Positions 7,346-47,870 of a stretch of 64,000 nt of DNA are shown piece after piece (within the stretch, counting starts at the first letter, position 1; each line of letters begins with the position of its first letter). Origin of the DNA: Hypanus sabinus. Taxonomy: Eukaryota. The notes under the pieces are model-generated. The model did not search any database. It was not told the origin of the DNA and saw only the letters and a program-made list of their open reading frames with translations. The stretch spans positions 110,670,001 through 110,734,000 of the forward strand of contig NC_082718.1 in NCBI RefSeq assembly GCF_030144855.1, written 5' to 3'. Made by a program: the position numbers and the translations under genes.

Positions 7346-7383
7346 TAGTCCTGACGAAGGGTCTCGGCCCGAAACGTCGACTG
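7346..7383 (+). ncRNA. Minimal type-I hammerhead ribozyme of a Penelope-like element
   Basis: tagtc CTGACGA a gggt ctcg gccc GAAA C GTC gactg. Helix I tagtc/gactg; helix II gggt/gccc; loopless palindromic helix III (ACGT); GUC cleavage triplet ending at 7378. Confidence 0.75.
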
Positions 7384-7486
7384 TACTTCTTCCTATAGAT
7401 GCTGCCTGGCCTGCTGTGTTCCACCAGCATTTTGTGTGTTGCTTAAATTTCCAGCATCTGCAGATTTCCTGGTGTTTGCATTTTTA

Positions 7487-8495
7487 AATCCAATGCCATG
7501 TTTAAGATTGTTGATGACACCACTGTTGTAGGCTGAATCAAAGACAGTAACAAATCAGAAGATAAAAGGAAGATTGAAAATCTGGCTGAGTGTTGACACA
7601 ACAACAACCACTCACGCAATGTCAACAAAACCAGGGAGCTGATTATTGACTTCAGGAGAGCGAAACTGAAGGTCCATGAGCCAGTTGTCATTGGAAGATC
7701 AGAAGTGGAGAGGTTCACCAACTTTAAATTCCTCTGTGTTATAATTTCAGAGGACCTATCCTGGGCCCCAGCAATGTAAGTGCAATTACAAAAAAGCACA
7801 GCAGTGCTTCTACTTCCTTAGAAGTTTGTGAAGATTCAGAATATCATCTACAACTTTGACAAGTTTCTACAGATGTGTGGTGGAGAGTACCTTGACTAGT
7901 TGCATCATGACCTGGTATGGAAACACCAATACCTTTGAATGGAAAATCCTATAGAAAGTATCGGACAGGGTCCAGTCCACTACAGTTAATCCCCTCCCCA
8001 CCACTGAATACATCTAAAAGGAATGCTGTTGTAGGAAAACAGCATCCAACATCAGGGACCACTAACACCCAGGCCATGCTGTCATCTCACTCCTGCCATC
8101 AGGAAGCAGGTACTGGAGTCTCAGGGCACACATACAACCAGGCTGAGGAACAGTTATTGCTCCTCAACCAATGGGAATAACCACACTCAACTTCACTTGC
8201 CCCATCACTGAACTATTCCCACAATCTATAGACCTATTTCAAGGACTCTTCATCTTGAGTTCTTGATATTTATTGCTTGCTTGTTTATCTATCTATCTAT
8301 CTATCCATCCATCTACTTATTGATTATTTTCTCTTATTTGAACAGTTTGTTGTCTTTTGCACATTGGTTCTTTGCCTATCATGTTAGGTGTGGTCTTTCA
8401 TTGATTCTACACTACTTCTTGGATTTATTGAGTACACCTGCAAGAAAATGATTCTCAGAGTTGACTATGGTGACATAAATATACTTCGATAATAA
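7487..8495 (+). mobile_element. Rex1/Babar-type LINE, degraded RT 3' half and 3' UTR
   Basis: Broken reading FKIVDDTTVVG..., NVNKTRELIIDFR, VERFTNFKFL; homologous to 58256-59248. Confidence 0.8.
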
Positions 8496-8554
8496 ATTCA
8501 AAATTAATAAACTAGAATAAACTAAAAAATATTTCAGCTTTATACAGTATATTT

Positions 8555-8965
8555 TGGACTATCTATACCTCTTGCTGCCTCAGTAAAGCAGCCAGCATAA
8601 TCCAGACCTCACCCACCTCCAGCATTCTCTCTTCTCTCTCTAATTCACCAGAAGATACAATAGCTTGAAAGCACCCACCATCAGGCTCTAGGACAGCTTC
8701 GATCTCACTGTTACCAGATCCTTGAATGGATCTCTTGTGTGATAAGATAAACTTTTGGCCTCATAATCTACTTTGTTGTGATTTTTACACTTTATCATTT
8801 AACTGCACTGCACTTTTTCAGTGGCTTTACACTTTATGCTGCTTAACTATAGTTAAACTTTATTCTAGCTTAATGCATTGTGTAATGATTTGATTTCCAT
8901 GTACAGTATGCAAGACAAGCTTTTCAATGTTCCTAGATACATGCGACAATAATCAACCAATACCA
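8555..8965 (+). mobile_element. Rex1-type 3' fragment
   Basis: aagcagccagcataat...ggacagcttc...gcaagacaagcttttca...caataatcaaccaatacc; same tail at 34150-34460. Confidence 0.6.
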
Positions 8966-9744
8966 AAACATACAAGTGAACATTTAGGAGACCAGCCTAT
9001 TGGTTTTGTCAGCTACAGGCATCTTTTCCATGTGGGAACTCACTTCACAGTCGCATTTCCACTTGCTTATTGTTAATGTTACAAACAGCACTCAGGAATG
9101 GCACCCTATTGTAACCTGGGGAAACTCCTTATGTCCAATCCCAATGGAATATTTCAATTCCAGACCCATTCATAACTTTCTAAAACTTTTCAGTTTTCTC
9201 TAATCTTTCTTCTCACTTTGCAATCTTTTTCAAATTTTCAGCTGTTTAAGTAAAGAATCTGAGTGCTAAGTGCCAGCACAGTCAGGAAAAATCTGCTTCC
9301 CTTGACACAGATTTGCCTGATGAATTATGCAAACTAACAATCTTCAGTCTATTCCCCACTGGCAACCTGAAGCTGCAAATCTTTCAGCACCTGTGCCCGG
9401 ATCTGCATTCTGCAAGATTTTGGACACATACAGCCAACTGAATCAGTGCCTGGCTGCTGGCAGAACGGTCAGAGCCTGAGCACACATTCTACCAAACTCT
9501 CACATTCCAGCCACTAATTATACCCTCACTGCACCATACCAAGCCCTGCTTGGAGGAATGGATTCTGCAGGAGGTTCAACATGAAATGAAATGTTCCTTT
9601 ACTGATATGCACTTGGAAGATTAATATCCCACTCTCTAAGACTTTCCTAATGGTTTATCTAAGAACTGGAAAGAACTCAAATAATGGAATCCAACACAAA
9701 CTGCTGATAGAGCCAAATAAATTTTAAATGGAAAGAAACCAATC

Positions 9745-11445
9745 ACGAACAAGATAAAATCCGCAGATGCTGTAAATCCAAGCAACACACATAAAATGCT
9801 GGAGGAACTCAGCATCAATGGAGTAGAGTAAACATTCAATGTTTTGGGCCAAGACCCTTCAGCAGTACTGGAGAATGAAAAGATGTGGAGTCAATTAGAG
9901 GGTGAGGGTGAAGGGACAGGGAAGGGAGAAACACAAGGTGATAAGTGAAACCTGGAATGGGAGGGGAAAGGATAAAGCAAAGAGCTGGGAAGTTGATTGG
10001 TAAGAGAGATACAGGCCTGGAGAAGGGGGAATCTAACAAGACAGAACAGAAGGCCATGGAAGAAAGAAAAAGGGGAAGAGTACCAGATGGAGGTGATGGA
10101 CAGGCAAGGAGACCAGGTGAAAGGGAGAAAAGGGGATGGGAAATAGTGAAGGGGCAGGGAGGCGTTACTGGAAATTTGAGAAATTGATGTTAATACCATC
10201 AGGTTGGAGGCTATCCAAATGTAATACAAGGTGGTGCTCCTCCAACATGCCTAAGTGTAGCCTCATCGCAACAGTAGATGTAGCCATGGATTGACTTCAC
10301 AGAATGGGAAGTAGAATTAAAATGGTTGCAAGTGGAACAAGTGCTATACCTGCCTCCACACCTCCTCCCTCACTACCATTCAGGGCCCCAAATATTCCTT
10401 CCATGGGCTCCTCCCATTCAGTTCTTCCAGGTGAGGCAATACTTCATCTATGAGTCTATTGGGGTCATCTACTGTATCTGGTGCACTTGCTGTGGCCTCC
10501 TGTATATCAGTGACACCTGGCATAGATTAGGAGACCATTTTGCCAAGCACCTATACTCCATCCACCAAAAAAAGCAGGATCTCCCAGTGGCCATTCATTT
10601 TAATTCTTTGACCCATTCCGACAAGTCAATCCATGGTCCCTCTATTGCTCCGATGAAGCCACACTCAGGTTGGAGGAGCAACACCTTATATTCTATCTCC
10701 AACCTGATGGCATGAACATTGATTCCTCGAGCTTCTGTAATAGACTCTCTTCCCTTCTGTTCCCATTCCTCTTTCTGTCTCTTACCTCATCTCCTTGCCT
10801 ACCCATCACCTCCCTCTGGTACTCTCCCCCCCCCTCTTCTTCCTTCCATGGCCTTCTGTCCTCTCTTATTAGATTACCCTTTCCAGACTCGTATCTCTCT
10901 CACGAATCAACTTCCTAGATTCCCAGTCCTTTACTTCATCTCTCTCCCTCTATGCTTCACTTATCACCTTGTTTCTCTCTCCCACCCACCCACCCACCTT
11001 CTAAATAGAAACATAGAAAATAGGTGCAGGAGTAGGCCATTTGGCCCTTTGAGCCTGCACCACCATTCAGTATGATCATGGCTGATCATCCAACTCAGAA
11101 CCCTGTACCTGCTTTCTCTCCATACTCTCGACCCCTTTAGCCACAAGGGCCATATCTAATTTCCTCTTAAATATAGCCAATGAACCGGCCTCAACTGTTT
11201 CCTGTGGCAGAGAATTCCACAGGTCCACCACTCTCTGTGTGAAGAAGTTTTTCCTCATCTCAGTCCTAAAAGGCTTCCCTTTATCCTTAAACTGTGACCC
11301 CTCGTTCTGGACTTAAGTAAATCCGACTCATCTTTTTCCTCTAGTCCTGCTAAAGGGTCTTGGCCTGAAATATCGACCATACTCTTTTCCATAGATGTTG
11401 CCAGGCCTGCTGAGTTCCTCCAGCATTTTGTGTGTGTTACTTCAA
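9745..11445. mobile_element. Inverted (tail-out) pair of Penelope-like fragments: minus 9745-10327, plus 10327-11445
   Basis: Plus arm encodes CKWNKCYTC and GVIYCIWCTCCGLLYISDTWHRLGDHFAKHL (Cys-rich region plus GIY-YIG). Minus arm is the reverse complement of the same 3' region. Decayed hammerheads at ~9834-9871 (-) and ~11341-11380 (+). Confidence 0.85.
11005..11314 (-). mobile_element. CR1 3' fragment inserted in the PLE
   Basis: ORF MRKNFFTQRVVDLWNSLPQETVEAGSLAIFKRKLD (CR1 ORF2 C-terminus); (ttctatgt) tail; short taaat duplication. Confidence 0.9.
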
Positions 11446-13029
11446 ATAGAAAGATGCATTTTTAGAGAGTCTGAATTACTGAAATGTTAGTCAGCTACTG
11501 CTCTGACCAATACACTCTGCATTTTTATTACATTCATTTATTTAAATGATATTTTGAATGGTGTGTTGTGTGCTTTTTGTTCAAAATATATTTAAACAAA
11601 TAAAATAAAAGTATCTTGTCCCAAAATGTAAACTGTTTATTCATTTCCATTGATGCCACCTGACTTGCTGAGCTCCTCCGGCTTTCTTGCCTCTGTTCCT
11701 CTGTGTTCCAGCATCTGCAGAACTTCTTGTGGTTGTAAAAATTAGTTTTATTTTGTTGTTAAGGTAACTGGGAGGATAGCCTTGTGAGCCACAAACTAGA
11801 TGGTTTGAATGCCCTGAAGCTGTTAGGTTCCATATAATTATACAAATGTATTCCACAGGAGAATCTCCAGGTCCAGTGAGGTCCAGTGAGGTACAGATTA
11901 TGGAAAGACTTACTTGCCGCAGCATCACGGGCATACAGGTTCAGACAACATTCAGAAAATTATTATACACAAGTTGTACCAAGACAGCAAAAAGAAAGAG
12001 ACGGTGTGCATAACAAGACATTAGAGTCACAGAGGCATAGTTATACAGAATAGAAACTGTCTCTTTGACCCAACTGGTCCATGCTGACAAAAATGCCCCA
12101 TCCATGTTAGTCTTATTCATCAGCATTTGGCCAATAACATTCTAAGCTTTTGTTATCCACGTACCTGTCCATCTGTCTTTTAAATGTTATTATGATATCT
12201 GCCTCAACCCTCAGGTTTACCCTGCAAACATCTGGCTGTTGAACTAACGTGGATATACTTACTCACTTCAATGCTGAACTGATTCCATAACCTACAGACT
12301 CACTTTCAAGGACTCCACAACTCATGTTCTCAGTATAATTTATTTATTTTATTTTAGTTATTTGCATGATTTGTCTTCTGCAATGGTTGTTTGTCAGTCT
12401 TTGTTACTTCTAGGTTTTTTTTTTCATAAATGCTATTGTATTTCTTTATTTTCCTATAAATGCCTTCAGTGAAACGAATCTCAAGGTAGTGTATGATGAC
12501 ATATAAATACTTTGGTAATAAGCTTACTTTGAAGTTTTTAAACCATTTCTTCTCACAGGTAGCACCCTTTGTGTAAAAAGCTTGTACCTCTGGTTCCTAT
12601 TAAATCTTTCCCTCTTATTGAAACTTCCAGCTTCTGATTCCCCAACCTTGGGGAAAAGACAGGGTGAATGCACCCTGTCTATATACGCTAAAGATTTTAT
12701 ACCCCTCTGTAAGTTCAGTCCTCTGTCTCCTACACCCTAAGGTATAGAATCCTAGCCTATCTGATCTCTTCCTATAACCCAGTCCCTCAAGATTTGCTAG
12801 AATCTTGAACAGTGACTATAAAGAGTATTCACTACCACACCCCCCCCCACCCCCCCAAACTTGGAAGTTTTCATGCTTTATTGTTTTACAATTTGGCTTT
12901 TTGACACCGATCAACAGAAAACATTCTTTCGTGTCAAAGTGAAAACAAATTTCTACAAATTGGTCTAAATTTATTACAATGATTAAATACAAAATATTTG
13001 ATTGTGTAATTACTCACCCCTTTCAAGTC

Positions 13030-14035
13030 ATTATTTAGTAGTTGCACCTTTAGCAGCAATTACAGCCTTGAGTCTGTGTGGATAGGTCTCTATCAGCTTT
13101 GCACATCTGGAAACTACAATTTTTTCCCCATTCTTCTTTACAAAACTGCTCAAGCTCAGTCAGATTGCATAAGGATCATGAGTGAACAGTCCTTCTCAAG
13201 ATCAGCCACAAATTCTCAATTGGATTGAGGTCTGGACTTGAGCTCTGACTTGTCCAGTGCAGGACATTAACTTTGTTGTTCTTGAGCCATTCCAGTGTAG
13301 CTTTGGCTTTATGTTTGCGATCATCAACTTACTGGTAAAACAAATCTTCTCCCAAGTTGCAATTCTCTCACTGATGCATTAGGTTTTCCTCCAGGATTTC
13401 CCTGTATTTATCTGCATTCATTTTACCCCTTACCTTCACAAGCCTTCCAGGGCCTGCTGCAGTGAAGCATCCCCACAGCATGATGTAACCACCACCATGC
13501 TTCATGGTAGAGATGGTGAGCGATGTTTAGCTTACATCAAACATAGTGCTTAGTCTGACAGCCAAAAATTTTGGTTTCATCAGACCATGGAACTTTCTTC
13601 CAGCTAACCTTGGAGTCTCCCACATATCTTCTGGCAAATAGTAGTGGAGATTTCATATGTTTTTTTTCAATAGTGGCTTTCCCTTTGCTAGTCTCCCATA
13701 AAGCTGCGGCTGGTGAAATATTTGGGCAACAGTTGTATGCACGTTCTCTCCCATCTCAGCCACTAAAGCTTGTAACTCCTCCAGAGTTGTCATGGGCCTC
13801 TTGGTAGCCTCCCTCACTAGTCCTCTTCTTGCATAGTCACTTAGTTTTTGAGGACAGCCTGCTCTAGGGAGATTCACAGCTGTGTCATATTCTTTCAATT
13901 TCTTGATGATTGTCTTAACTGTATTCCAAGGGATATTTAGTGACTTGGAATTTTTCTTATATCTATCTCCTGACTTGTGCTTTTCAATAATCTGTTTGTG
14001 GAGTTGCTTGGAGTGTTCTTTTGTCTTTATGGTGT
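13030..14035 (-). pseudogene. Tc1 transposase pseudogene
   Basis: ORF 13653..14114 contains KTKEHSKQLHKQIIEKHKSGDRYKKNSKSLNIPWNTVKTIIKK...LPRAGCPQKLSD..RRGLVREATKRPMTTLEELQ (paired-like HTH). Downstream WSDETK, KHGGGYIMLWGCF and [11 protein letters not shown] motifs occur with frameshifts. Confidence 0.88.
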
Positions 14036-14168
14036 AGTTTTTGCCAGGATACAGACTCCAAGTAGTTGGACCTTCCAGATACAGGTGTGTTTTTACTATA
14101 ATGAAATGAAACACCTTGAATGCACACAGGTGATCCCCATTTAACTAACTACATGACCTCTAAAACTG

Positions 14169-15149: not shown

Positions 15150-15420
15150 AGATTTCTGGACTGGTAACAGAGAGACTTGTACTAACAATCCAGAGACTTG
15201 AGTCGAAACCCACAGTGACAGCTATGGAATTTAAATTCAGTTATCCTTCTGGAACTTTTCCTTGTAAGCTATCATTAGTAATGATGGCTGCAAAAGTAAC
15301 AGTTTGTTGTAAAAACTCAGCTGACTCACTAATGTCCTTCAAGAAAGAAAATTTGTAATCCTTGCCCAGTCTGGCCTGCAATTAACTCCACATCCAATAA
15401 TGCAGTTGATTATTAAATGG
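15150..15420 (+). mobile_element. Old tRNA-derived chondrichthyan-type SINE
   Basis: gagtcgaaaccc B-box-like motif; ggaatttaaattcag; ttgttgtaaaaac...ctcactaatgtcctt. A related copy lies at 60060-60365 (-). Confidence 0.55.
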
Positions 15421-15423
15421 AGA

Positions 15424-15555
15424 GTAACACACACACAATGCTGAAGGAACTCAGTAGGTCAGGCAGCATCTATGAAGAGGAATAATCAGTTGACATTTCA
15501 GGCTGAGACTTTTCATCAGGACAGTTGAAGGATCTTGGCCTGAAATGTCGATTGT
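15424..15555. mobile_element. PLE terminal fragment in fold-back arrangement (two decayed hammerheads back to back)
   Basis: gttgacatttcaggctgagacttttcatcagg (-) followed by gaaggatcttggcctgaaatgtcgattg (+). Confidence 0.7.
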
Positions 15556-15719
15556 TAACAAACTTGGAATTATGACATTCAGACCCAACAAAATTGATAT
15601 AGGGCCAAGCACATCAGTGACTTGAGCAGAAAATGCCAGGTTGACACTGTTCAGCACAGAGAAAAATACAATGACAAGCATTTTCTGTTGTCTAAATCAA
15701 TGTTCTCTCATTTAAAAAA

Positions 15720-16620: not shown

Positions 16621-16714
16621 ACCTTTGCATTATCTGATCTGGCATTGTCTGGTTCTTGTATTGTCTCATGCTTTTTAACCTTGGTCCTGAACTCCATTAT
16701 TCAATAGAAACATG

Positions 16715-17093
16715 CACTCAGTAGCCATGTTGTTAGGTACCTCCTGTATCTAATAAAGTAGCCACAGAGTGTATATTTTTGGTGTTCTGCTGCTGCAGTC
16801 CATCTACTTCAAGGTTCAACATGATCTGCACACAGCAGTTGTAATGCACTGTGATTTGAACTACTGTCACTCTCCTGTCAGATTGAACCATTCTGGCCAT
16901 TTTCCTCCGAAGTCTCTCATCTACAAAGCATTTTCACCCACACTTAGATCACGTCTTCCCTATTCTGATGTTTGCCCTGAGACTTTTGATAGTGCCTGCA
17001 TATTTTCTTTTGCATTGAGTTGCTGCCACATGATCAGCTGATTATTTATTTGCATTAACGAGCAGGTGTACCTAATAAAGTGGTCACTGACTG
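16715..17093. mobile_element. Tc1/mariner-type MITE with three TIR copies
   Basis: cactcagtagccatgttgttaggtac...; internal inverted copy ending 16771; terminal gtacctaataaagtggtcactgactg followed by TA. Confidence 0.75.
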
Positions 17094-18047: not shown

Positions 18048-18049
18048 GT

Positions 18050-19000
18050 AAAGTTGATTTTATTGTCATATATACAAGTACATGTATGCACAGATGCGAT
18101 GGAAAACCTATTGCAGAAACATCACAGGCACATGGCATTAAAGATAAAACATTCTCAACAAAAACATAGATTAACATGAAATGTACAAAAAAGAACTTAA
18201 TCAGAACAAAAGAAAAGTCTATTTTAGTGCAAAGTGATCAAAATGGTCAAGGTGTTGTTAAACTGTAGTGATTAGTGTTGTGCCAATTGATTCAAGGACT
18301 GAATGGTTGAAGTGAAGAAGCTGTACCTGAACCTGATGGTATGAAACATCAGACTTCCGTACCATCTGCTTGATGGTATGGAACATCAGACTTCTGTACC
18401 TCCTGCCTGATGGTATGGAACATCAGACTTCCGTACCTGAACCTGATGGTAGGAAACATCAGACTTCCGTACCTGAACCTGATGATATGAAACATCAGAC
18501 TTCCGTACCATCTGCTTGATGGTATGGAACATCAGACTTCTGTACCACCTGCTTGATGGTATGGAACATCAGACTTCTGTACCTCCTGCCTGATGGTATG
18601 GAACATCAGACTTCCGTACCTGAACCTGATGGTATGGAACATTAGACTTCTGTACCTCCTGCCTGATGGTATGGAACGTCAGACTTCCATACCTGAACCT
18701 GATGATATGGAACATCAGACTTCCGTACCCGAACCAGATTGTATGGACCATTAGACTTCCGTACCTCCTTGGTATGGAACATCAGATCAGACTGTTGTAC
18801 CTCCTGCTTGATGGAATATGGAATATCAGACATCAGTACCTAAAGCTGATGCTATGGAATATCAGATTTCCGTACCTCCTGCTTGATGGTATGGAATATC
18901 AGACATCTGTACCTAAAGCTGATGGTATGGAACATCAGACTTCTGTACCTCCTGTCAGATGGTAGTTTTGAGAAGATGATCGGGATCTTTGATGAATTTT
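18050..19000 (-). mobile_element. Rex1-type 3' end containing an expanded minisatellite
   Basis: Minus-strand LPSDRRYRSL..HTI.FR motif of the Rex1 C-terminus, followed by 3' UTR ending gacaataaaatcaacttt. Confidence 0.7.
18321..18965. repeat. 36-38 bp minisatellite, ~17 units
   Basis: Units acctgaacctgatggtatggaacatcagacttccgt and acctcctgcctgatggtatggaacatcagacttctgt, with variants. Confidence 0.95.
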
Positions 19001-20566
19001 TCCTTCTCAAAATGCATGTGGACGGGTACTTAGACAGGAAAGGCATAGAGGGTTATGGGCTTTTTATAGGCAAATAGGATTGGTGTAAGCAGAAACCAGG
19101 GTTGTAATGCAAAACGGCCTTTTTCTGTGCTGTTTGAATCTATGATCCTCACTGATTTTAGAAATAACTCTATTGAATAGTGAGCAGGCTCGAGGAGCTG
19201 TATGGCCTATTCTTTCTATACTTCTCCAGATTTATTTTTGATGATGGACTTCCCACTCCTCTGGCAAGATTTCACTCTTCAAGTATTTATAGAATTCCAT
19301 TTCCATGGCTTCCATTGAGCTTCTATCAGCTACTGCATTCCAAATGCTAACCACATGTCGTGTAACAATACTTTTCCTTGTGTCCCCTCCTGTCCTTTTT
19401 GCCAATTACTTTAAATCCCCTGACTATTGAAATTCCATCCACTGGAAACAGTTTCTTTTCTAATATTTAAACACTGCAGATGTTCGCTTTGTCTTTACAC
19501 TTAACTTCACCACTGCAAGATTAATAACCCAGGATTGGAAATGAATTAGGTATCAGTTGACAAGCTGGCAGACCCACAATATAAAGTCTCCGTAATTCCC
19601 TGTTCTCAGGTATTAACAAGGATCACCATGAAGGCAGTTAATTTGTCAGAGTGCACACTGGTGGGCTGTGTACTAAATTTCAGCCTCCACAAGCAATCAA
19701 CGCAGCCATAGATCACACTGTTCAGTCTCACACAGGCACAAGTTCCTTTAAACATATTCCGAAGTTTCATTACTGATGCTATGTTCAGTGTAGTGTCCTG
19801 ACCTAATCTTTTTCTCATTGTTCAAGTCCCTGAAAATCTCTGCTAAATGGATTATCACAAGGTGGATGAATGTCAATGCTTGAGATTTCAAATCCCACAG
19901 GTCTTCCGTTTCCCATGGATAGTCTGCTACAAGAAGATACTCAGGATTAATGCCCTTAAACCAACTCTATTAAGTTGCCTTAACATGTCATATCATGACT
20001 TTCAGTTGCAGCAGTCATTGTGATGTGTGCTTACCCTGGATGTGCATTTCTATGTAAGGCCGATAAATGTAAGTTTGGTCGGAGTTTGCATTAAAGGCTT
20101 TATGTGCTTTTATGCTTTTGTATTATAATAATTATTAAAATATTTTAATAATTTCATTGATATTTAATAGGTTTTAGATGTCAGAGAGATTGAATATTAT
20201 TGATATACTTGACAGCTGGCTAAGCATCTGAGTGACTGCCAAATATTTTCTGATTGTTTCTTGATCTAGCCAAGCAGGCTGAAGTTGGCCGTGGAGACCC
20301 ATCTCATTACGACAGATCCTCAAAAGATATGACTGTATTTCCCTTTGTGTTTGCTGGCAAGTAGAGGTGGCTCAGCCCCATCATTGTGTTGCAATCACTC
20401 AATGATTAATCCAGTAATTAATAGTACAGGGACTCTTCAGGTTATGAAAAACCTGATTTACCAAAACCAACTATGCAAATTCTTCCAGAGATTTTAAAAG
20501 AAATTTTCAAGGTAGTAATAATAATCATATGATAATTGGTATATTTCAACAATTGAACATAATATA

Positions 20567-20623
20567 CACTCAGTGGCCTCTTTATTGGGTACCTCCTGTA
20601 CCTAATAAAGTGGCCACAGGGTG
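20567..20623. mobile_element. 57-bp TIR-only Tc1-type MITE flanked by TA
   Basis: ta|cactcagtggcctctttattgggtacctcctgtacctaataaagtggccacagggtg|ta. Confidence 0.75.
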
Positions 20624-21244
20624 TATTTTTCAAATTAGTAACTGTGAATGCTTGTATTTTTAGACATATCGATCGCATTTATTAAAAGAAATACCCACCA
20701 ATTTTTTTGTTGTCTACAGGAGTTAAAAACACTCGGTGGCACACTGTTTAGAAACATTCAGTAATGTGAACTCTCCCTACATAGCATCTACCATCAGGGA
20801 ACCGCCACTATCCAGGTCATGATCTTTTCCTGTTGCTGCCATTAGGCAGGAGGTAGAGGCATCTGAAGACTCACACCTCAAGGTTCAACAACAGCTTCTT
20901 CCCCACTGTCATTTGGTTCTTGAATCTACCTCAAAAGCTCTAATTCTACCTTGGACTATATTTCTCTCAATTTACACATGTTGTTGTGAAGATTTTTGTT
21001 TTATTTTGCAAATTTCTGCTGAACACTGATAAATACATATGTTTATGATACATCTTAATAATTATTCTTCACTTCACTTCAAGGTTCAAGGGTTAGTCAA
21101 ACTGATTTTCTCAACCCTTGTTAAAAAGGTCTAAAACAGAAGAATGTTTTAGCACAGAGAGTTTACCACTGGATTTGATCATAAATGGCCAATATCAAAT
21201 TGTTGTCTTATGTCAGATTGGTACAGGGTCTAGGGAAGATTATG

Positions 21245-21785: not shown

Positions 21786-23270
21786 GGAAACAATTTTAAT
21801 CAGAAGTAATTTTAACCCATTCAGCTTGTTTCCTTGTGAACTTTGCACTTTGATAATAAATATATTTTGAACATCGAACTTTGATTGTTTTATCTCCACA
21901 AGGCTTCAGCCCAACATTACCTTCAAAAGACGTCAGTTCCTTCCTCACCAACAGTGCAGTTTTACTCAGATATATTGCCATCAAGTCTCTAAATCAAGAC
22001 AACCTTGTGGCCAAGGATGTTTACTCAGCTGGCCACAGGTTCAATCCTGAGGGATTCCCTCTCCGTTGGGCAACAGGGACTGAATGAATAGGAAGCACTC
22101 CAGGATGTGAATCAGAACTGAACAATTAATCGTGAGTAAATCAATGTGAGAACAGCAATATCAAACTTGAACTAAGCCATTTTAGTTGCTTGGAGAGAAG
22201 AAAATCCATTCACTGCAATGAAAATACAAGCATAGGTGAATTAAAGCAACACATACAAAATGCTGGAGGAACTCAGCAGGCCAGGCAGCATCTATGGAGA
22301 AAAGTATAGTTGACATTTCAGGCCGAGATGAATTAAAAGCTTTCCTTATCCTGTTTAAGAACAGAGTTGTTAACCTATCACTCACCAACAACCACTGAGG
22401 GGTGCCTTGGCACTGACAGCACCAAGGAGATGCCAATCACATTAATAAGTAACCTTCAAAAGTGATGAACCTCGTTCTTATTTTTGGAAGGGAAATGTTA
22501 TGGCTGGAGGGAAGAGTCACATTGCCCAGAGGTTGCATTGTGGACAACTTTAACTGCATGACCTGCTTGTCTGGTGAGCAAAATACAAAAGTCTTATTGC
22601 CACTAAAGCATGATTCTGAAGGGAAATAAAGAGGAGGGAGTATACACTGATTTATTTGACACTATAGTTTTGTAGAACAATAAGGTTGTTGTGGTAACCC
22701 CTATCGCCTCTACAGTTGGGGTAGAAGTTTGGGGGTTGGTCTTCTTCTTCCACTGCTTATGCAGGGCTCCTGTGTTCTCCTGTAGCTTTGAGATATTCAA
22801 CATTATTCTGAATTCTCCCTCTCCATTGTGAGCAGTCATGGCCAGGAGCCAGAGAGGATTTGGAACACATCCTTGAATCTTTTCCTCTCTCCACCAGATA
22901 TATTCTTCCCACGAAAGATTTGAAATAGAATGTTTTGTGTTTCAGACATGCAAAAACTTGTTTTACTCTTTCAACCTTATTTACATCTTTCCTGTAGGTA
23001 GATGACCAAAAGTGCACACGCCTCACCAATGTCTTCTACAACTTCAACATAATATCCCATCTCCTGTATTCAGTACTTTGATTTATAAAGGCCAATGTGT
23101 CAAAAGCTTTCTTTATGATGCTTTCAACCTATAATGCCACTTTCAATGAATTGTGTACCTGTATTCCCAGATCCCTTTGTTCCACCACACTCCTCAGTGC
23201 CCTACCATTCACTGTGTAAGACCTACCCTGGTTGGTCCTACCGAAGTGCAGCATCTCAGTAGTCTGCATT

Positions 23271-24221: not shown

Positions 24222-25857
24222 AAATTCCATCTGCCATTTTTCAGCCCATTTTTCCAGCTGATCTGAATCTCAATGCAAGCCATGATAGTCTTCCTCACTG
24301 TCCACTACACCCTTCAATCTTGGTGTCACCTGCAAATTTGCTGATCCAGCTAACCACATTATCATCCAGATCATTGAGATAGATGACAAACAGCAATGGA
24401 CCCAGCACTGGTCTGTGCTGCACTCTACTAGTCACAGTCATACAGTCAAAGTGGCAATGATTTATTACCCCTCTCTGGCTTCTCCCACAAATTACTACCT
24501 CATCTTGAATGCTGAACAACATAACCTCCTTGACCAACTTCCCATATAGGATGTTGTCAAATGCCTTGCTAAAGTGCATGTATACATCCACTGACTTGCC
24601 TTCATCTGCTTTCCTGGTAGCTTCCTTGAAAACTCTACAAGATTGGTTAGACATGACCTACTACACATGAAGCAATGCTGACTATCCTTAATCAGTCCAT
24701 GTCTATCATATATCCAGTCCTTTAGAATACCTTCCAATAACTTTCCCACTACTTATGTCAGGCTGACTGGCCTATAATTTCATGGTTTACTTTTTGAGCC
24801 TTTCTTAAACAGCAGAACAACATTAGCTATCCTCCAATCCTCCAGCACCTCAACTGTCACTAAGAATGATTTAAATATCTCTGCTAGGGCCCTAGTAATT
24901 TCTGCACTTACCTTCCACAGGGTCTGAGGAATCACCTTGTCAGACCTCAAGGCAGCAAACATATCCTTCTCTATAATCTGTAAAGAGACCATGAAGTTGA
25001 TGTCAATTAGCCTCACTCCTATAGACTCTCTGTCTGTATTCTGAGTGAATACAGATGCAAAAAAAAAGCATTTACAATCTCTCCCATCTCTTCAGGCTCC
25101 ACACATGGTTTACCATTCTGATCTTCCAGAGGACCAATTTTGTTCCTTGCAATCTTTTTGCTCTTAACCTATCAGTAGAATACCTTAGGATTCTCCTTCT
25201 CCTTGTATGCTAAGGCAACTTCATGCCTCCTTTTAACCCTCCTGATTTCTTCCTTAAATGTTCTCTTGCATTTCTTATACTCCATAAGCACCTTATTTGT
25301 TCCTACCTGCCTATACCTGCAACGCATCTTTTTTTCTTCACCAGGGCCTCAATTTTGCTTGTAACCCATGGTTTCCTATGCCTGTTTCTTTATCTGTTAT
25401 TCTGACAGGCACAATCAAATTTGTCTTTTGAAAGTGTCCCACCTTTGTACACCTTTGCCAGAAAACAGCCTGTCCCAATCCACACTTGCCAGATCTTTTC
25501 TGATACCATCAAAATTAGCCTTTCCCCAGTTTAGAACCAGACCTATCTTTTTGCATATTTACCTTGAAACTAATGGCATTGTGATCACTAGATGCAAGGT
25601 GTTCACCTAAACAAATTACTGTCAATGCACACAAAATGCTGGAGGAACTCTGCAGGCCATTCACCACCTTTGGTCACCTGCCCTGTCCCATTCCCTAATA
25701 GCAGATCAAGTTTCACACACTCTGTCATTGGGACTTCTATGCACTGATTAAGAAAACTTACCTGAACATATGCAACAATCTCTATCCCATCTAGTCCTTT
25801 TACAGTGTGGGAGTCCCAGTCAATATGTAGAAAGTTAAAATCACTGACGATAACAAC

Positions 25858-25985
25858 TTCTGAAGGGTGTTGGCCTGAACTGTCAACTGTACTCTTTTCC
25901 ATAGATGCTGCTTGGTTTGCTGAGTTCCTCCACCATTTTGTGTGTGTTGCTCGGATTTCCGGCATCTGAGGATTTTCTCTTGTTT
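25858..25985 (+). mobile_element. Short PLE terminal element with TSD
   Basis: gaagggtgttggcctgaactgtcaactg...ggcatctgaggattttctc; flanked by ataacaactt / atgacaactt. Confidence 0.7.
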
Positions 25986-29474: not shown

Positions 29475-30763
29475 AGAACAAAGAATGATACAGCACAGGC
29501 CATTCAGCACATAATGTTGTGCTGACCCTTAAACCCTGCCTCCCATATAACCCTCCACCTTAAATTCCTCCATATACCTGTGTAGTAGTCTCTTAAATTT
29601 CATTAGTATAACTGCTTCCAGCACTGACTCAGGCAGTACATTCCATGCACCAACCACTCTCTGAATAAAAAACCTTCCTCTAATATCTCCCTTGAACTTT
29701 CCTCTCTTTACCTCAAAGCCATGTCCTCTTGTACTGAGCAGTGGTGCCCTGAGGAAGAGGTGCTGGCTGTCCACTCTGTCTATTCCTGTTAATATCTTGT
29801 ATACCTCTATCATGTCTCCTCTCATCCTCCTTCTCTCCAGAGAGTAAAGTCCTAGCTCCCTTAATCTCTGATCATAATGCAAACTCTCCAACCCAGGTAG
29901 AATCCTGGTAAATATCCTCTGTACCCTTTCCAATGCTTCCACATCCTTCCTATAGTGAGACAACCAGAACTGGACACAATACTCCAAGTGTGGCCTAACC
30001 AGAGTTCTATAGAGCTGCATCATTACCCCATGACTCTTAAACTCTATCCCTTGACTTATGAAAGCTAACACTCCATAAGCTTTCTTAACTACCCTATCTA
30101 CCTGTGAGGCAACTTTCAGGGATCTGTGGACATGTACCCCCAGATCCCTCTGCTCCTCCACACTCCCAAGTATCCTGCCATTTACTTTGAACTCTGCCTT
30201 GGAGTTTGTCCTTCCAAAGTGTACCATGTCACACTTCTCCAGGTTGAACTCCATCTGCCACTTCTCAGCCCACTTCTGCATCCTATCAATGTCTCTCTCC
30301 AATCTTCGACAATTCTCAACACTATCCACAGCACCACCAACCTTTGTGTCATTTCCAAACCTACCAATCCACCCTTCTACCCCCACATCCAGGTCGTTAA
30401 CAAAAATCACGTAAAGTAGAGGTCCCAGAACCGATCCTTGTGGGACACCACTAGTCACAACCCTAACCAATCCGAATGTACTCCCTCCACCATGACCCTC
30501 TTTTTTCTGCTGGCAAGCCAATTCTGAATCCACCTGGCCAAACTTCCCTGGATCCCATGCCTTCTGACTTTCTGAATAAGCCTACCATGTGGAACCTTGT
30601 CAAATGCCTTACTAAAATCCATGTAGATCACATCCACTGCACTACTCTCATCTATATGCCTGGTCACCTCCTCAAAAACACTCTGTCAGGCTTGTTAGAC
30701 ACGATCCACCCTTCACAAAACCATGCTGACTGTCCCTGATCAGACCATGATTCTCTAAATGCC
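29475..30763 (-). mobile_element. 5'-truncated CR1 LINE with RT domain (inactive)
   Basis: ORFs 30455..30667 (YMDFSKAFDKVPH) and 29529..30533 (SGVPQGSVLGPLL; catalytic motif mutated to FGNDTK). Frameshift between them. Confidence 0.95.
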
Positions 30764-31784
30764 AATTCGTTGTTTTTATATCTAAATATAAATTCTTCAA
30801 ATTGTCTTGGCAAGATTTGAATCTATTGTATCATGACTCCAGGGACATGAACATTATTCACCTGCATCTTGTATATTTTTGGTGTCTTCGTTGTGTAAGG
30901 TTTATATTTTAGTAATCGAGTCTGATTTTCTGAAGCCTGGCTCTGCATTATTAATACTTGCTCCAGTGTCACAGGGTCTGAGTGGAAGCGGAAGCGGAAT
31001 CAATGGAATGACTACTCAAGCTTTCTCACATTGAAAAATGTTACGAGTAATGATCTGCTACTTGAATGTACCTTTCATCACCCATCGGTGCCTGATCCTT
31101 ATTTTATAAAGAAACTGGAACTCATATGTGAAAAAAATAAAGAAATCAAAGACTTTCCTTCATTTAGCACCTTGCCAAATGTATTATATTTCCAAAAAAC
31201 ATATCTTATTCATAAACTATATTGTGGTACTCCAGGAGACAGTGCATTGTCTTTCAACACCGTACCAAGCCAATCATGACGTTCAAGATCAAAATTCAAG
31301 CTGTGGGACAAGTTCAATGGTAATTGGCATTTGTGAAGGCAGAGGGGAAGGGCAACACTCTGAGTCAAGAAACTGCATGAAAATTGAGGTTATTAAAATT
31401 TAGCTTTATTTCTCACATTTACGTCAAGATATGCACAATTTGAGGATGTGCTGTGAGCAGCCTGCAAGAGTTTCCATGCTTTTGATACCAACATAGCATG
31501 CCCACTGCCTACTACAGGAGCATCTGGAGGAAACCCACATGGTGATAGGGAGAAAGTACAAACTCTTTGAAAACAGACATTGGGCTTTTATTTTAATTTG
31601 ATATCATTAAAAAACAAGGTGGAGGTCCTATCTGGAAGTGGATGTAAAAAAACCCAGCAGATTATGAGCAACGAACACCCAAAAAGGACTTGTGGCTACT
31701 GTAGCGAGGCTGGTTGAGCACATAGTTGGAAAGCAGCAGAGATCACAGACAGGGAGCAGTGAGAGAGGGTTCCTGGGAACTTGT

Positions 31785-31950
31785 CACCTATCACCTGCCA
31801 GCCTGTATTCAATCCCCTAACTTCAATTTCTTATTCTGGCTTCCTTTCCCATCCTGATGAAGGGTCTTAGCCCAAAGGATCAACCATTTATTTCTTGCCA
31901 TTGATATTGCCTGACCTGCTGAATTCCTCCAGCATTTTTGTGTGTATTGT
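31785..31950 (+). mobile_element. PLE terminal fragment
   Basis: cacctatcacctgccagcc...cctgatgaagggtcttagcccaaag...gcctgacctgctgaattcctccagcatt. Confidence 0.75.
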
Positions 31951-33689
31951 TGAGAGATCAAGTGTTTTTCTTTATCAGAGCAAAAGTTCATTCAAGGGTC
32001 TTACGAGCCTGGTGGTACTCAGCAAAGTGGTACCCGTGACCAATGGCAACATCTTACAGACAGCTTGCAAAACTACCAGAAACTCTTCTTCTGCTAGATG
32101 TACTTCCTCTTTTGAATGGCAATCGATTGCAGCCTGTGAATTCAATTTTAAGAATGCATTTTTGTGCCGATTGAACAACCTGGTACTTCTGCAATCTCCT
32201 GGGGGAATTCGGTGTGGATGAGATTTTGTGTCGATTCCTAATAGTGGAACACGAACCCATGGCCAGCTCCATTACTCTCCGCTGATTAAGGTGTCAAGCA
32301 AGATTAAAATTGTCAAGGATGAGAACAGAAAACAAACAAGCATTCTGCACTATCTGCCTACGTTTGATCGGTTTCTCCTGCTCCTGCCAGTGGGCAGAAG
32401 GTGCAGGAGATTTGGTTCGGGAGCAGTTGCTGCCTGCAATCATTGAGCTTCTGGACAGACACACCTCAGTGCTGAACGTGCTCTGCAGTTGTGGACTTGC
32501 TTCGGGGATTCTGCAGTTCTTGCTCCTTGTGTTATTTAACTATTTGCATGATTTGACTGAAATGCTTCAGCCCTGAACTAACTCTGTACCAGTACAATGA
32601 AGAGGGTTCACTTTTGGGCACTCTGGATACTGTTTGCATGATTTGTTCTTTTATCTCGCATTGGGTACTTAATGGTCTTGTTGTGTGGGGTTTTTATTTG
32701 AACGTGTTCTATTGTGTTTGTTTTGTGGCTGCCTGCAAGAAGATGAATCTCAAGGTTGTATGCTGTATACATACTTTGATAATATGTGTATGTTCAACTT
32801 TGAACCTGTGCGGACCACAGTAAGATGCTGCAAACTGGAATTGAAATTCTAGTGTTTAAAATACCTCCACTTAGCAGTAACCTGTTTTGGATCATTTTTT
32901 TTGTCCACAGAAACTCTCAAATTATACAAGCTCTCACTTCATTCAAAAGAAGTAACCCTCAGCTCAGACTAATCACACCTTCCCTGAACTGCTAATTCTA
33001 TGGCAAAAAAACTCATGAGGATAAAGATCTGGTGCCTCCTCACATTGGTGTGTGAGCAGGACTGCCAGAGCCAGGCTGGCTAGGTCAGTCCCTGAGCTAC
33101 TAGCCCCAGAAGAAATCAAGGAAAGATTAATTGATCCTGTTAGTAACTGCTGATTGAAATTCCAGCCAATTAATCAATTGTAATTAATTAATTGACAGCC
33201 CTGACTGTAACATTTTTTGTCATAGCTGCTTTAATATCACAATTCCAAGTTGTGTTCAAGACTGAATTGATCTGATGCAGCCAAATTAGAAACTATGCCC
33301 AGGGATAAAGCTGCAATATTTCCTTTATAGAACATCTCTTCTCTTCATACTTTCCAAACTATATGAATTCACAATAACCAATAAGAGAATTTTTCATTCA
33401 TAAATCTTTTAACAAGGCAGAAAGATTCGATTGTTCATGGTAGGAATGTTCTTAAACAAAATTTAACATCTCTGCCTCTGGCCTAAAATGATTCCTGAAG
33501 CACACATCTTTGGAAACATTAAGAATATTTTTTTCTGAACTCTGTGACATTGTCCTTTGGTCACAGAATTAAGTGATACACAAGAACTAGCCCTTTGGTC
33601 CACATATTCGCATTGACCACCAAGGACCCATCTGCACTAACTCCATTCTATTTTCCCAATATTCTCACCAACTCCCCCATCTCCCAATT

Positions 33690-35664: not shown

Positions 35665-35667
<3 letters not shown>

Positions 35668-35738
<71 letters not shown>

Positions 35739-37230: not shown

Positions 37231-37314
37231 TGACTCCAATGTTTTACTGTAACCACGTTGCTGCAAACTCAAAACAAGTAAATGATGTTGTTATACTTCT
37301 CCTTCTCCCTCAGT

Positions 37315-40408: not shown

Positions 40409-40967
40409 AATATTATTCAGAAAACTAACAGTTGTTAACTTATTATTGTTGGTGAGAACTTGCTGCTTAGAAGCAGGTGGCTATGCTTCTACTGTAGTAT
40501 TAAACCAGTAGCTGTAATTAATTAGCTGCAAGATGCACCAAATTTGTGAAAGACACTAAATAAATGCCAACTTGACCTTCTGGTTGTTGGTTGTGGTCAA
40601 ACCTTTGTTTATATTGTGAAAGATAAACTTTAATAGCCACTACTCAAAACTTAGTGAACTTTGAGATAGTTCAGTCAGATTATTCTGAAGAAAAATAAGC
40701 GGTTTCAGATTTGGACAAAATGATGGATTATAATTGGCCCTGACCATCATGGGTATATTAATCTTTAGGATATGGTGATGAGCTGCATACTACATTAAAT
40801 GTCTCATTAAACTCTACATGAAAAAGCCTGGAGCCAAAATCCACTCCACTGTTTATGGCTGAACTATTAGTGAGAAACTTGGTCAGAGAATTGGAAGAAA
40901 CTAAAATGTATTTTTCCAATTAATTATTTAATAATTTTAGAAAATTGAACATGCCATTCAGCCATAA

Positions 40968-41300
40968 ATACACAAAATGCTGGGGGAACTCAGCAAGTCA
41001 GGTAGCATCTATGGAGAGGAATGAAGAGTTGACATTTCGGGCTGAAACCCTTCAATAGGAATTTTAGCCACTCAGAATATGCCATTTTGTCATTGGGCCT
41101 ATTTTGCCATTCAGAATTCTTTTCATCAAAACACCCTGACTCTATGTACACATGCCAGCTGTGGGTGAGGGACTGATGAAGGGTCTTAGTTCGAAACATC
41201 AACTGTTTCTTCCCCTCAATAGATGCTGCCAGACTCGCTCAGTTCTTCCAGCATCTTGTGTGTGTTGCTCAAGACTTCCAGCATTTGCAGAATCTTATGT
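40968..41300. mobile_element. Two PLE terminal fragments: minus 40968-41060, plus 41172-41300
   Basis: Both carry hammerhead remnants and the gatgct..ctga..tgctgagtt..ccagcatt tail. Confidence 0.75.
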
Positions 41301-42167
41301 ATTTATACAAACAAATACAATATGCTTGCCCTTTGCTGCTGATGATTAAGGGTGTGTGTTTGGGAATATTGAAGCAACATTAACTTCTGAAACGGTCCTG
41401 TAAAATGAATTGTATGTACAGAGCACTGTGAATATTGGTGAGTGCAACACTAATTCATATACATCCTTGCATTTTCCCCTCCTGTAAGCAAGCAGTCTTA
41501 AGATCAGAAACCACCAGCAGCCTTATTGTAAAATCCTTTGTCATTTCCCTTAATAAGTTCCACCCTAGAACAGAGGCCACTACTTTCACCAGTCTGAATA
41601 GCAGGTTGCCTGCTGAGAGACAGCACTCTGCTTCGGAATTGTCTTTTTCATAGCTTGGCAGGGCCATTTCCTGCTGTCGCCCAGGATGATATCTTGCCTT
41701 TCAGAACCACTGCAATGCCTTGTCTTGATGACTCAAGTTCTCATGTTGTATAATGACTCTCATCTTCCACCGATGGTGGTGATGAATGTGTCAGACATTC
41801 CTGGTACTGAGGATATTTGTTTTTATTTTCTCAACTATACAGTCACAAAATCAAGGATAAAGTAAGATTATTTGTGAAAATAATTTTTTTTTGACTTGCC
41901 AATTTTTATTAATGCACTACAAAAAGCATCCTATCTGGACACATCACAGCTTGGTATGGTAACTGCTCTTGCAATATACTACAAGAAACTGAAAAGAGTT
42001 ATAGACACAGATTAGCACAGCACAATCAATTGTTTAAATTGATGCAATTCTATCAATTACAATAGTTAAAGCTTTACACTGATCAACAGGAATTATTAGA
42101 CAAAGGGGATGGGACTGATGATCCAGTGTTGCACAAATAGATGACAGAAAATTGCTTTCCTTTGTTT

Positions 42168-45490: not shown

Positions 45491-45564
45491 GTGAAGGAAA
45501 AAATAAAAGCCAATTTGCATTCTGCAAGTTCCCAAGAAAGGAACTATGGCCATAATTGAGTAAG

Positions 45565-46520
45565 ATACTGAAAATGCTGGAGAAACTTAGCAGCATAGGC
45601 AGCATCTATGAAAATGAATAAGTGTTGACATTTTGTGCTGACACCCTTCATCAGGACTGGAAAGGAAGGTGGAAAATGCCAGAATAAGAAGGCGGGAGTA
45701 GTGGGAGAGGAAGGAGGAAAAGCTAGAAGGCGATAGGTGAAGCCAAGTGGGTGGGGGAGGGGGGGGATGAAGTAAGAAGTTGGAAGGTGATAGGTGGAAA
45801 AGGTAAAGAGACGGAGAAGAAGCAATTTGATAGGAAAGAAAAGTGGTCCATGGGAGAAAGGGAAGGAGGAAACAGAAAAACCTACAGCACAATACAGGCC
45901 CTTTGGCCCACAAAGTTATGCCGAACATGTCCCTACCCTAAAAATTACTAGGGTTACCATGTACCTATCCAAAAGTCTCTAAAAAAACCCTATCGTATCC
46001 GCCTCCACCACTGTTGCCGGCAGCCCATTCCACACACTCACCACTCTCTGCATAAAAGACTTACCCCTGACATCTCCTCTGTACCTACTCCCCAGCACAT
46101 TAAACCTGTATCCTCTTGCAGCAACCATTTCAGCCCTGGGAAAAAGCCTCGGACTATCAAAAAGCCTCTGACTAGCGTCTGAGGAAGGGCACCAGAGGGA
46201 GGTGATTGGTAGGTGAGGAAAAGAGGTAAGAGACCAGTGTGGAGAATTGAAGAAGAGGGAGGGGGAGGGGGGAAATTGCCAAGTTGGAAAAATTGATGTC
46301 ATGCTATCAGGTTCATGACTAAATGATCCACCATTAGTCATTATCATTCCCTTCTCTTCACGGTTCAATACTGGCTATCCTTCCTCTATCTTTCAATCCA
46401 GATGAAAGGGTCTCAATTTAAAATACAACCTCCTTCCACAGATGCTGCCTGACTCATTGAGTTCTTCCAGCATCATGTGTCCCCCCCCAAGATTCTAGCA
46501 TCTTGTAGTCTCTTGTGTCT
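45565..46520. mobile_element. PLE fragments (minus 45565-46320, plus ~46340-46520) interrupted by a CR1 3' end (~45870-46165, minus)
   Basis: Purine-rich PLE region with decayed hammerhead at ~45622-45660. CR1 ORF fragment LFPRAEMVAARGYRF..FMQRVVSVWNGLP. Confidence 0.75.
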
Positions 46521-47739
46521 CTACCTGTAGTGAGGAGAGTTGAGAGATAAATATTGGACAGAGAGTTCTTATTTAGCAACTCAACTAACAAATTGCACTC
46601 CCACTCCTACATTTCTAAACTGGTGATTCCTGACAATCTGGTTTTGGTTTAGCAACTTGATGGAAATTTGACACCCCACCAGTACTGGTGCATCCCACAG
46701 CACTGGACTGAGGACTCCTGGCAAATCTGGGATGTGACTGTCACCAAAGAAAGGAATCAAGTGGAAAAGTTGAAGATTTGCCAAGAAAATTCAAAGCCCA
46801 AGTAAATATATTTAAAAGTATGTATATGGCTCCATACACTACCTTGAAATTTATTTCTTGCAGGCATTTACTGGAAAATAAAGAAATACAATTGAATTTA
46901 CAAAAAATATGCATAGAGAATGACAACCAATGTGCTAAAGAAGACAAACTGTGCAAATAAATAAAATTATAAATAAATAATTCCTAAAACATGGATTGTA
47001 CAGATCTTGAAGGTGAGTCTGTAATTAATGGTTAAGATGAGAAATTTGAGCATAATTGTATCACTTAGCTGATCTAATGCTGGAAAGATAGGGGAATTCA
47101 CTGATAGGCAAAGCCTGTGAGACAATAAGGACATTGCCACAACATGTTAGGCTTACAGACAAAGAAACTATAGAAATAAAGGATCAAATCACTGAAAATC
47201 CACAGAACACTGTCAGAAAAAAAATGTGATTATAAGCAAGCCACATGCAAATTACAAGAAAAATTACAATTTAGACAATGCACTAGCTGATCTAATTAGG
47301 TTGAGTAGCATATGTAGCCTGTGTAGCCTATAAGCATTTTTACTTTTAACCAAAAAGATTGTATTCATTTTAAAGCCATATGCTGCAACCTTTGTCTCAG
47401 GCATTTGCCCAATGTTACTAGAATGTGTAACCTTAAAATAGGGTCCTTAAAATTGCTTTGTGTCATTTTTCCTTTATCGGTGGCACAGCACTATGGCTCA
47501 ACCCAAAATAACTAGTGAAAGTCAGATAAAGAGCAAAAGCTTCTGATGTGCAGTTTTCAGAGCAGCACAGTTGAGTCTCCCTATGTAATCCAGTGCTGAA
47601 ACTGATGTTGGTAAAGCAAGTTCTCACAGCTGCCAGCATGTAACCTAGCAGGTGCAGTCTCAGCAGCCAGCTCTCACAGGACACACTGCAAAACAACATT
47701 TCCTGCGGAGTGAGTGTTGCTGATGAATGAATGAAATTA

Positions 47740-47870
47740 AAGTCCTGATAAAGGGTCTTCTTGGCCTGAAAAGTTGACCGTTTATTCCTTTCCATATATA
47801 CTGCCTGATGACCTCTAGCATTTTGTGTGTGTGACTCTGGATTTCCAGCATATGTAGAATTGTTTGTGCT
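47740..47870 (+). mobile_element. PLE terminal fragment
   Basis: agtcctgataaagggtcttcttggcctgaaaag...ggatttccagcat. Confidence 0.7.

Follow-up and report, generated by a model that had tools for sequence, protein, structure and literature searches.

Genomic copies of a hammerhead-bearing Penelope-like element in Hypanus sabinus frequently begin at the front edge of the ribozyme motif

The window analysed here, 64,000 nt of Hypanus sabinus DNA (NC_082718.1:110,670,001-110,734,000; window coordinates are used throughout), contains many copies of a short module in which a hammerhead ribozyme motif is followed by a tail. This module is the terminal-repeat end of an autonomous Penelope-like element (PLE) encoding a reverse transcriptase (RT) and a GIY-YIG endonuclease. 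A preliminary description had reported it at 7346 and at eleven further places, and inspection of the sequence together with a profile search located it at every one of them. The profile, built from the window copies with one refinement round, gave 16 matches in the window and added copies at 2600, 11609, 15516 and 25621-25673. Positions within the module are counted from the hammerhead C3 (position 0), with predicted cleavage between +27 and +28; the subfamily names F0-F3 and E were coined in this analysis. The following features were assigned:

2600-2679, plus strand: highly decayed module copy outside the range of the preliminary description (profile search).
5737-5807, minus strand: short inverted piece beside the next feature, the whole spanning 5737-5954 (tblastn, and blastn to full-length copies).
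5806-5954, plus strand: GIY-YIG coding fragment of the long copy that ends at 7478 (same searches).
6907-7478, plus strand: 3' end of a young F1 PLE with endonuclease C-terminus, pyrimidine-rich region, hammerhead and tail (91% to the subfamily profile).
7346-7383, plus strand: motif with the sequence of an intact minimal type I hammerhead; C3 at 7351, predicted cleavage after 7378, helix I TAGTC/GACTG.
9740-10310, minus strand: left arm of an F2 head-to-head insertion, with endonuclease end, 3' region and long-tail module.
10326-11448, plus strand: right arm of the same insertion, with endonuclease aa 841-973, 3' region and short-end module.
11003-11326: another repeat, splitting the 3' region of this right arm.
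11609-11736, plus strand: decayed module copy missing from the preliminary description (profile search).
15416-15557, no single strand: short head-to-head pair of a minus copy starting at -3 and a 42-nt plus piece (profile search).
22238-22328, minus strand: short copy starting inside helix II (+11), with a 9-bp duplication.
25621-25673, minus strand: tail-only fragment without ribozyme (profile search).
25858-25986, plus strand: short copy with long tail and a 13-bp duplication (11/13).
31784-31953, plus strand: F0 copy with ~80 nt of upstream region.
40966-41062, minus strand: short copy starting at -2.
41170-41306, plus strand: short copy starting at about C3, with long tail.
45557-46267, minus strand: longer F0 copy; the gap in its match at 45871-46180 holds another repeat.
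46361-46515, plus strand: decayed copy, head to head with the preceding one.
47739-47872, plus strand: short copy starting at -4, with long tail and a 7-bp duplication.

Many of these copies had been said to lack coding sequence, which is the case for nine of the twelve listed ones; the other three (7346, 9834 and 11341) have GIY-YIG sequence upstream. Part of the pyrimidine-rich 3' region is kept in three copies (31851, 45622 and 46395), five begin at or adjoining the ribozyme edge, as the preliminary description had stated for several (15487, 25860, 41027, 41172 and 47741), and one starts inside helix II (22305). The target-site duplication (TSD) attributed to the copy at 25858-25986 exists, albeit as an imperfect match at 11 of 13 positions; with the duplication subtracted, the copy starts at about +3 and lacks C3-G5. 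The copies at 9834 and 11341 belong to a single insertion as its two head-to-head arms, with an 11-bp duplication (10/11 matching) on either side, and so do not count as independent. Facing pairs occupy 9740-11448, with coding sequence in both arms, and 45557-46515.

As an unselected sample we used 14 blocks of 100 kb at a fixed coordinate of 14 large contigs (1.4 Mb). The same profile gave 182 matches there, with 1-24 per block, and none in the reversed blocks, from which a copy number of roughly 5x10^5 in the 4.04-Gb assembly can be extrapolated. An exact 31-nt core of young copies occurs 4119 times genome-wide, and its backwards control does not occur at all.

The affiliation of the module becomes clear from the long copies. 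Upstream of it lie 330-400 nt of pyrimidine-rich sequence, preceded by a GIY-YIG C-terminus, and walking further upstream led to open reading frames (ORFs) of 967 and 974 aa, the latter in locus L172. The ORF holds RT motifs of the DKG, GxxMG and YIDD types, a CX4CX2C linker and the endonuclease. Its relatives carry RVT_1 and in some cases GIY-YIG, the best being a bamboo shark protein (68%); the GIY-YIG match of the L172 ORF itself (E 0.012) is below the Pfam cut-off, and a PDB sequence search with the ORF gave no match. The L172 linker, CKWNKCYTC, fits the Neptune pattern CX2-5CxxC between RT and endonuclease, which passages of one survey describe for Nematis too and not for Neptune alone (PMC8557442). 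L175 and L185 have a module at either end, the upstream one running on into the 5' part of the ORF. The module terminates every examined long copy that has one, and in full-length copies it also precedes the ORF. Copies have two preferred 3' ends ~35 nt apart, at about +85 to +104 or +120 to +135. Head-to-head arrangement is common, with 31 pairs involving 62 of the 182 block matches, and only one pair is tail to tail. Hallmarks of endonuclease-bearing (EN+) PLEs are present: a pseudo-long terminal repeat (pseudo-LTR) or partial tandem, inverted 5' copies, an optional tail and TSDs. As a separate observation, the N-terminal part of the ORF contains a 96-bp (32-aa) tandem repeat of varying copy number (L171:3247-3819, L175 and L185).

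The hammerhead motif comprises CUGANGA, one extra A, a GGGU/GCCC helix II, GAA-ACGU-C and a helix I of 3-5 bp. Judged by its letters, it corresponds to a minimal type I hammerhead in F0-F3, with the core, G10.1-C11.1, a palindromic helix III and the 3-5 bp helix I. A scan against Rfam gave no hammerhead model match at E<=1, and unconstrained folding predicts another hairpin and thus lends the motif no support. Variation also exists at the level of master sequences, namely A6C in part of F2 and U17 in F3. In subfamily E (blocks C17, C18, C28 and C1; at least 3648 copies genome-wide) the catalytic core is complete and helix I cannot pair.

In about one third of the copies, the 5' end coincides with the front edge of the hammerhead motif and not with the predicted cut site. 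We examined the first 70 of the 4119 exact cores, in order along contig C1, as a young set, in which L308 and L309 look like one duplicated locus. In this set, which is blind to ends inside the core, 26 of the 70 copies (24 by script, plus L270 and L275 reassigned by eye) start 0-6 nt from C3 with a mode at -2/-3, and the starts of the others are spread from 12 to more than 700 nt. The corresponding hazard is 0.064 per nt at the edge and 0.0025 per nt beyond, a ratio of ~26. In the unselected blocks, where 141 of the 182 matches were scored and 41 were dropped for low score or because the alignment missed the module, 38 of the 141 start at -6 to +2 (hazard 0.052 per nt). Only four start at the cleavage site, +26 to +30 (hazard 0.007), which shows no peak, and the other bins have hazards of 0.002-0.011 per nt. 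The start rate at the edge is roughly 5-30 times that elsewhere. The pile is found in F0-F3, among solo (21/88) as well as paired copies (17/53), and a simulation with 423 random cuts produced no false peak (true 9, inferred 6). Genome-wide, 2333 of the 4119 F1 cores retain bases -5 to -1. In the young set, excluding nine very long copies, TSDs scoring at least 9 were present at 8 of 26 short and 9 of 35 longer copies, as opposed to 0.4% among 482 mismatched controls. The clearest examples have the duplication directly adjoining -2 and a start at -2/-3. The clustering of starts at the ribozyme contradicts the random truncation that, according to the preliminary description, would have refuted its reading, and the TSDs mark the copies as separate insertions. 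With its position ~30 nt 5' of the cleavage site, the pile is not a product of self-cleavage. Among the titles, abstracts and passages searched, we found no paper reporting such a pile.

We consider it likely, with a probability of roughly 60%, that the short copies, or stubs, are 3'-terminal insertion products of the autonomous endonuclease-bearing PLE that start at the RNA start as a result of internal priming and run-off. In such a process, the 5' end of the element RNA would lie at the leading edge of the hammerhead, with the pyrimidine-rich region upstream as the putative promoter and an initiator-like YYANWYY centred on -4. Each transcript would thus contain two priming modules. Use of the downstream one would lead to ordinary 5'-truncated insertions, and priming at the 5' module, 90-130 nt into the RNA, would be followed by run-off at the RNA end and give stubs of 95 or 135 bp. 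Now and then, a jump from the end of the RNA back to a priming site would generate tandem modules, and after insertion the copies would decay neutrally, with CpG sites changing first. For an anole PLE, in vitro work reports that priming takes place internally, at two sites on either side of the tail, and that ribozyme mutations do not affect insertion (PMC11167929). Footprints of template jumps are seen in L321 (1240-1690), which has three modules of different haplotypes in tandem, and in L322, a chimera in which an F1 tail is joined to an E module at -2; the joints in both loci land on -2 to -5. The upstream region of all four profiled subfamilies terminates with poly(Y)-YAG-TCC, a sequence compatible with a splice acceptor as well as with an initiator. 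Subfamily E, however, has CAC instead of CAG before the module. Among its cores, 427 of 787 keep bases -5 to -1 and 336 of these 427 keep the next five, so that the loss is 46% over -5 to -1 and 21% over -10 to -6 (p 1e-17). A drop without AG or a paired helix I favours an RNA start over an effect of acceptor or helix. Together with the sharp 5' end at the edge and its absence at the cut site, the amplification of subfamily E with an unpaired helix I argues that cleavage does not define the template. The pile also gives an exact prediction for the position of the RNA start.

Several points weigh against an RNA start at the edge. Its position is deduced from the ends of genomic copies, and the test with subfamily E assumes one upstream master sequence. 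Since the modal end of young copies is -2/-3 and not the -4 predicted from the initiator, trimming by 1-2 nt must be assumed. The same letters form a textbook 3' splice acceptor in four subfamilies, and CCAAT boxes occur in only three of the four. According to the parts of the Drosophila virilis work consulted, the Penelope transcript starts 46 bp upstream of an intron (PMC2377424) and this intron ends at helix I (PMC4209133); the precedent at this place is therefore an intron end, not a start site. Finally, no full-length copy starting at -4 is present among 20 long copies, three of which reach the 5' module, all three with sequence upstream of it.

Plain random truncation, with the pile as an alignment artefact at a low-complexity boundary, has in its favour that ends beyond the edge are spread as in ordinary truncation; yet the hazard ratio in young copies, a simulation free of the artefact, the agreeing exact genome counts and the TSDs abutting the start leave this idea a negligible chance and refute it for the samples used here. 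Copying of ribozyme-cleaved linear or circular RNA, which has been proposed for PLEs and retrozymes in the parts of the literature covered (PMC4209133; PMC7229834) and to which the 99-bp arrays described below lend some colour, is very improbable as the source of the stubs. Hardly any ends lie at the cleavage site (4/141), 13 of the 26 young stubs have the long tail that the 99-nt unit lacks, and the five long-tail tandem joints are all different. It is largely refuted for the bulk of the stubs and possible for the arrays. The preliminary description had favoured a non-autonomous SINE-like (short interspersed element-like) family mobilised by PLE machinery, which as a separate family would have its own master copies. 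Mobilisation by PLE machinery holds in so far as the copies are separate PLE-driven insertions with TSDs, and the stubs do share traits with SINEs, being short, non-coding, dispersed and flanked by TSDs. Fixed 5' and 3' ends and a very high copy number also speak for such a family, and promoter-bearing truncated copies could supply stub RNAs in trans. However, short copies occur in all five subfamilies and have haplotypes and both 3' ends in common with long copies (in the young set 13 long-tail and 12 short-end among 26 short copies, 27 and 15 among 44 long ones). On a tree of 67 of the 70 young rows, short and long labels intermix (18 changes vs 20.4 after shuffling, 74 of 500 shuffles being as low), although this tree is weak, with only two well-supported branches, and therefore compatible with small masters. 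The A and B boxes typical of RNA polymerase III promoters were not matched, with up to one mismatch, in four subfamily profiles. Because of the shared subfamilies, the intermixing and the lack of these boxes, a separate SINE master is not supported and appears quite improbable; the stubs are most plausibly dead ends produced by the autonomous subfamilies.

Two further explanations retain the autonomous element. RT copying unspliced RNA might halt at a roadblock, either splicing factors on the polypyrimidine tract and AG before helix I or the point where purine-rich cDNA begins. U2AF- and PTB-type factors bind such tracts, poly(Y)-YAG stands directly 5' of TCCTGA in F0-F3, and the clean TSD cases start at -2/-3, the first exon base; the intron end of D. 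virilis Penelope again maps to helix I in the portion of the source covered (PMC4209133). On the other hand, subfamily E shows the same drop with CAC and no AG, the hazard inside the tract is low (0.002-0.008 per nt), and none of 26 short copies has upstream-exon sequence from the element, so that we regard a roadblock as unlikely. A related model of spliced exons was rejected, as no element-derived exon precedes the 26 stubs, although exons shorter than ~14 nt would escape. In contigs from four presumed-RNA runs of other organisms, none of the 15 joints listed was a sense-strand intron joint with its end at the acceptor; such contigs are unable to reveal starts and so speak neither for nor against. 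Alternatively, all copies could start at the 5' module, reach the RNA start and jump to a terminal redundancy made by the ribozyme at the 3' end, the stubs being failed jumps. This obligate strong-stop transfer explains the 3' ends ~100 nt past the cleavage site, and jump joints do exist. But in a set that includes loci chosen by similarity searches, none of the 155 long copies that could be classified combines two subfamilies on either side of the ribozyme, and linkage across it is not reduced (mean D' 0.44 vs 0.46; 122 F1 copies), whereby intermolecular strand transfer is rejected. Only two gap openings fall at -10 to 0, and subfamily E was amplified with an unpaired helix I. Obligate transfer is accordingly quite improbable; it may apply in a strictly intramolecular version.

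Besides solo and paired copies, the genome contains arrays in which the short 3' end is joined to the ribozyme edge. A pattern search gave 121 matches, and 98 of the 100 listed have one and the same junction. Many of them lie in head-to-tail arrays with a 99-bp period and up to seven junctions, corresponding to ~40 loci among the matches listed, concentrated on a few contigs in a manner that allows segmental spread. Clonal arrays with the common junction include:

G000:C81:884420-885043, C499:111717-112497, C44:515478-516002, C72:545955-546479 and L182:2265-2560.

The array in C499 has a head-to-head partner, and that in L182, the only one with visible flanks, has three units and lies 5' of a near-complete ORF. 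The junction yields a helix I of CUGUC/GACAG, i.e. 5 bp compared with 3 bp in the commonest F1 form; the F1 copy of the window also has 5 bp, via another variant, and the window contains no short-end tandem junction. The arrays are probably a retrozyme-like, non-autonomous derivative of the module, and bioRxiv tables of retrozymes may list this 99-bp family. A 133-bp retrozyme was considered and rejected, as its five joints are unlike each other and L323 seems to be a chance match. The arrays cannot explain most stubs. More tentatively, and with the odds somewhat against it, the whole might be described as strong-stop-like cDNA synthesis: RNA starting at the hammerhead, priming ~95 or 130 nt in and run-off would have produced stubs on the order of 10^5, and one jump would have founded a 99-nt retrozyme that spread as multimers, its junction extending helix I from 3 to 5 bp. 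In that case, the birth of a ribozyme circle from a retrotransposon could be read at base resolution. The arrays as such offer a tangible path by which the end of a PLE may become a retrozyme. The copying mechanism of PLEs and the role of their hammerheads are open questions in the field.

The preliminary description had further proposed that the ribozymes were disabled mainly by CpG decay. We tallied 137 block copies (four E-like ones dropped), with CpGs set to the inferred master state and F2 position 6 skipped. The recurrent changes are indeed CpG transitions, and the comparison of CpG and other rates that had been suggested shows a ~5-fold excess: 0.29 CpG transitions per site in the invariant core, 0.33 in the rest of the ribozyme and 0.29 in the tail, against 0.05-0.07 for non-CpG transitions. 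CpG observed/expected in the window is 0.19. The ribozyme has four CpGs in F0, F2 and F3 and five in F1, which touch G12, the closing pair of helix II, helix III and G1.1, as well as G8 in F1 and F3. Whether decay of this kind is the main cause depends on the definition of the core. Among 97 copies spanning it, CpG transitions make up 160 of 317 changes at 16 core and closing positions (62-64% in F1 and F3), but 32 of 136 at the 11 invariant positions. Judged by the latter, 22 copies are intact, 18 are broken by CpG changes only, 13 are mixed and 44 are broken by non-CpG changes only. The proposal therefore stands for less diverged subfamilies or a wide core definition and fails at the invariant positions, with 18 of 75 broken copies attributable to CpG alone. 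The non-CpG rate is 8.1% in the core and 11.8% in the tail; this difference reaches significance in F0 alone, and we attribute it to variation between master sequences and not to selection acting on the copies. Decay of the methylation type, as we infer it to be, comes first and proceeds at the genome-wide rate without specificity for the ribozyme; CpG change is neutral decay and not the main killer of old copies. Separately, block G000:C27:50000001-50100000 is unlike the others, with CpG observed/expected 0.90, 48% GC and one module match.

The window also contains unrelated repeats:

1555-2300: minisatellite (16/37/53-bp period).
13653-14144, minus strand: Tc1/Sleeping Beauty-type transposase fragment.
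16710-16776 and 20562-20628: palindromic repeats resembling miniature inverted-repeat transposable elements (Rfam mir-9256 match below the gathering score).
18296-18953: minisatellite (36/37-bp period).
27356-28282 and 29529-30581, minus strand: RT fragments of long interspersed elements (LINEs), presumably CR1/L2-like (RVT_1 matches).
58256-59817, minus strand: little-decayed RT-bearing LINE fragment (RVT_1 match).

In comparison with known systems, the element belongs to a known class and shows a mechanistic footprint that we did not find in the papers searched; the repeat family and its CpG decay are themselves ordinary. Schistosoma repeats resembling SINEs (PMC6765202) are likewise short, dispersed and equipped with a hammerhead, with a promoter before the ribozyme, whereas none was found inside the stubs described here. 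With EN+ PLEs having a Neptune-type linker (Craig et al. 2021, PMC8557442; Arkhipova et al. 2013, PMC3846280), the element shares the RT with C-terminal GIY-YIG and Cys linker, the pseudo-LTR from partial tandems, heavy 5' truncation, inverted 5' copies, the optional 30-40 bp tail, TSDs and a hammerhead in the terminal repeat. It differs from them in the sharp 5' end at the ribozyme edge, which the passages covered do not describe, and in the roughly estimated ~5x10^5 copies. As in the Poseidon element PAc of Anolis (Frangieh et al. 2024, PMC11167929), two insertion-end sites downstream of the hammerhead bound the tail and no ends lie at the cleavage site; the site is described as AC-rich there and has a UG-rich sense sequence here, and a genomic 5'-end pile is not reported in the parts covered. 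Animal non-LTR retrozymes (Cervera and de la Pena 2020, PMC7229834; Li et al. 2026, 10.64898/2026.07.22.740005) consist, like the 99-bp arrays, of type I hammerhead units that are repeated head to tail and descend from the terminal repeat of a PLE. In contrast, the window copies are solo or head-to-head, and the arrays carry a hammerhead of the minimal kind; their junction can be traced to the priming site and the 5' pile. Metazoan PLE hammerheads (Cervera and de la Pena 2014, PMC4209133) have the same core, the extra nucleotide between 9 and 10.1, G10.1-C11.1 and the palindromic 15.2-16.2, and mostly occur as single dispersed motifs read as truncated PLEs; here helix II has 4 bp and there are master-level variants (A6C, U17 and the unpaired helix I of E). 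The variability of hammerheads within a genome has been considered hard to explain by DNA mutation in the same work, as far as covered (PMC4209133). In the present case, CpG decay and subfamilies account for much of it.

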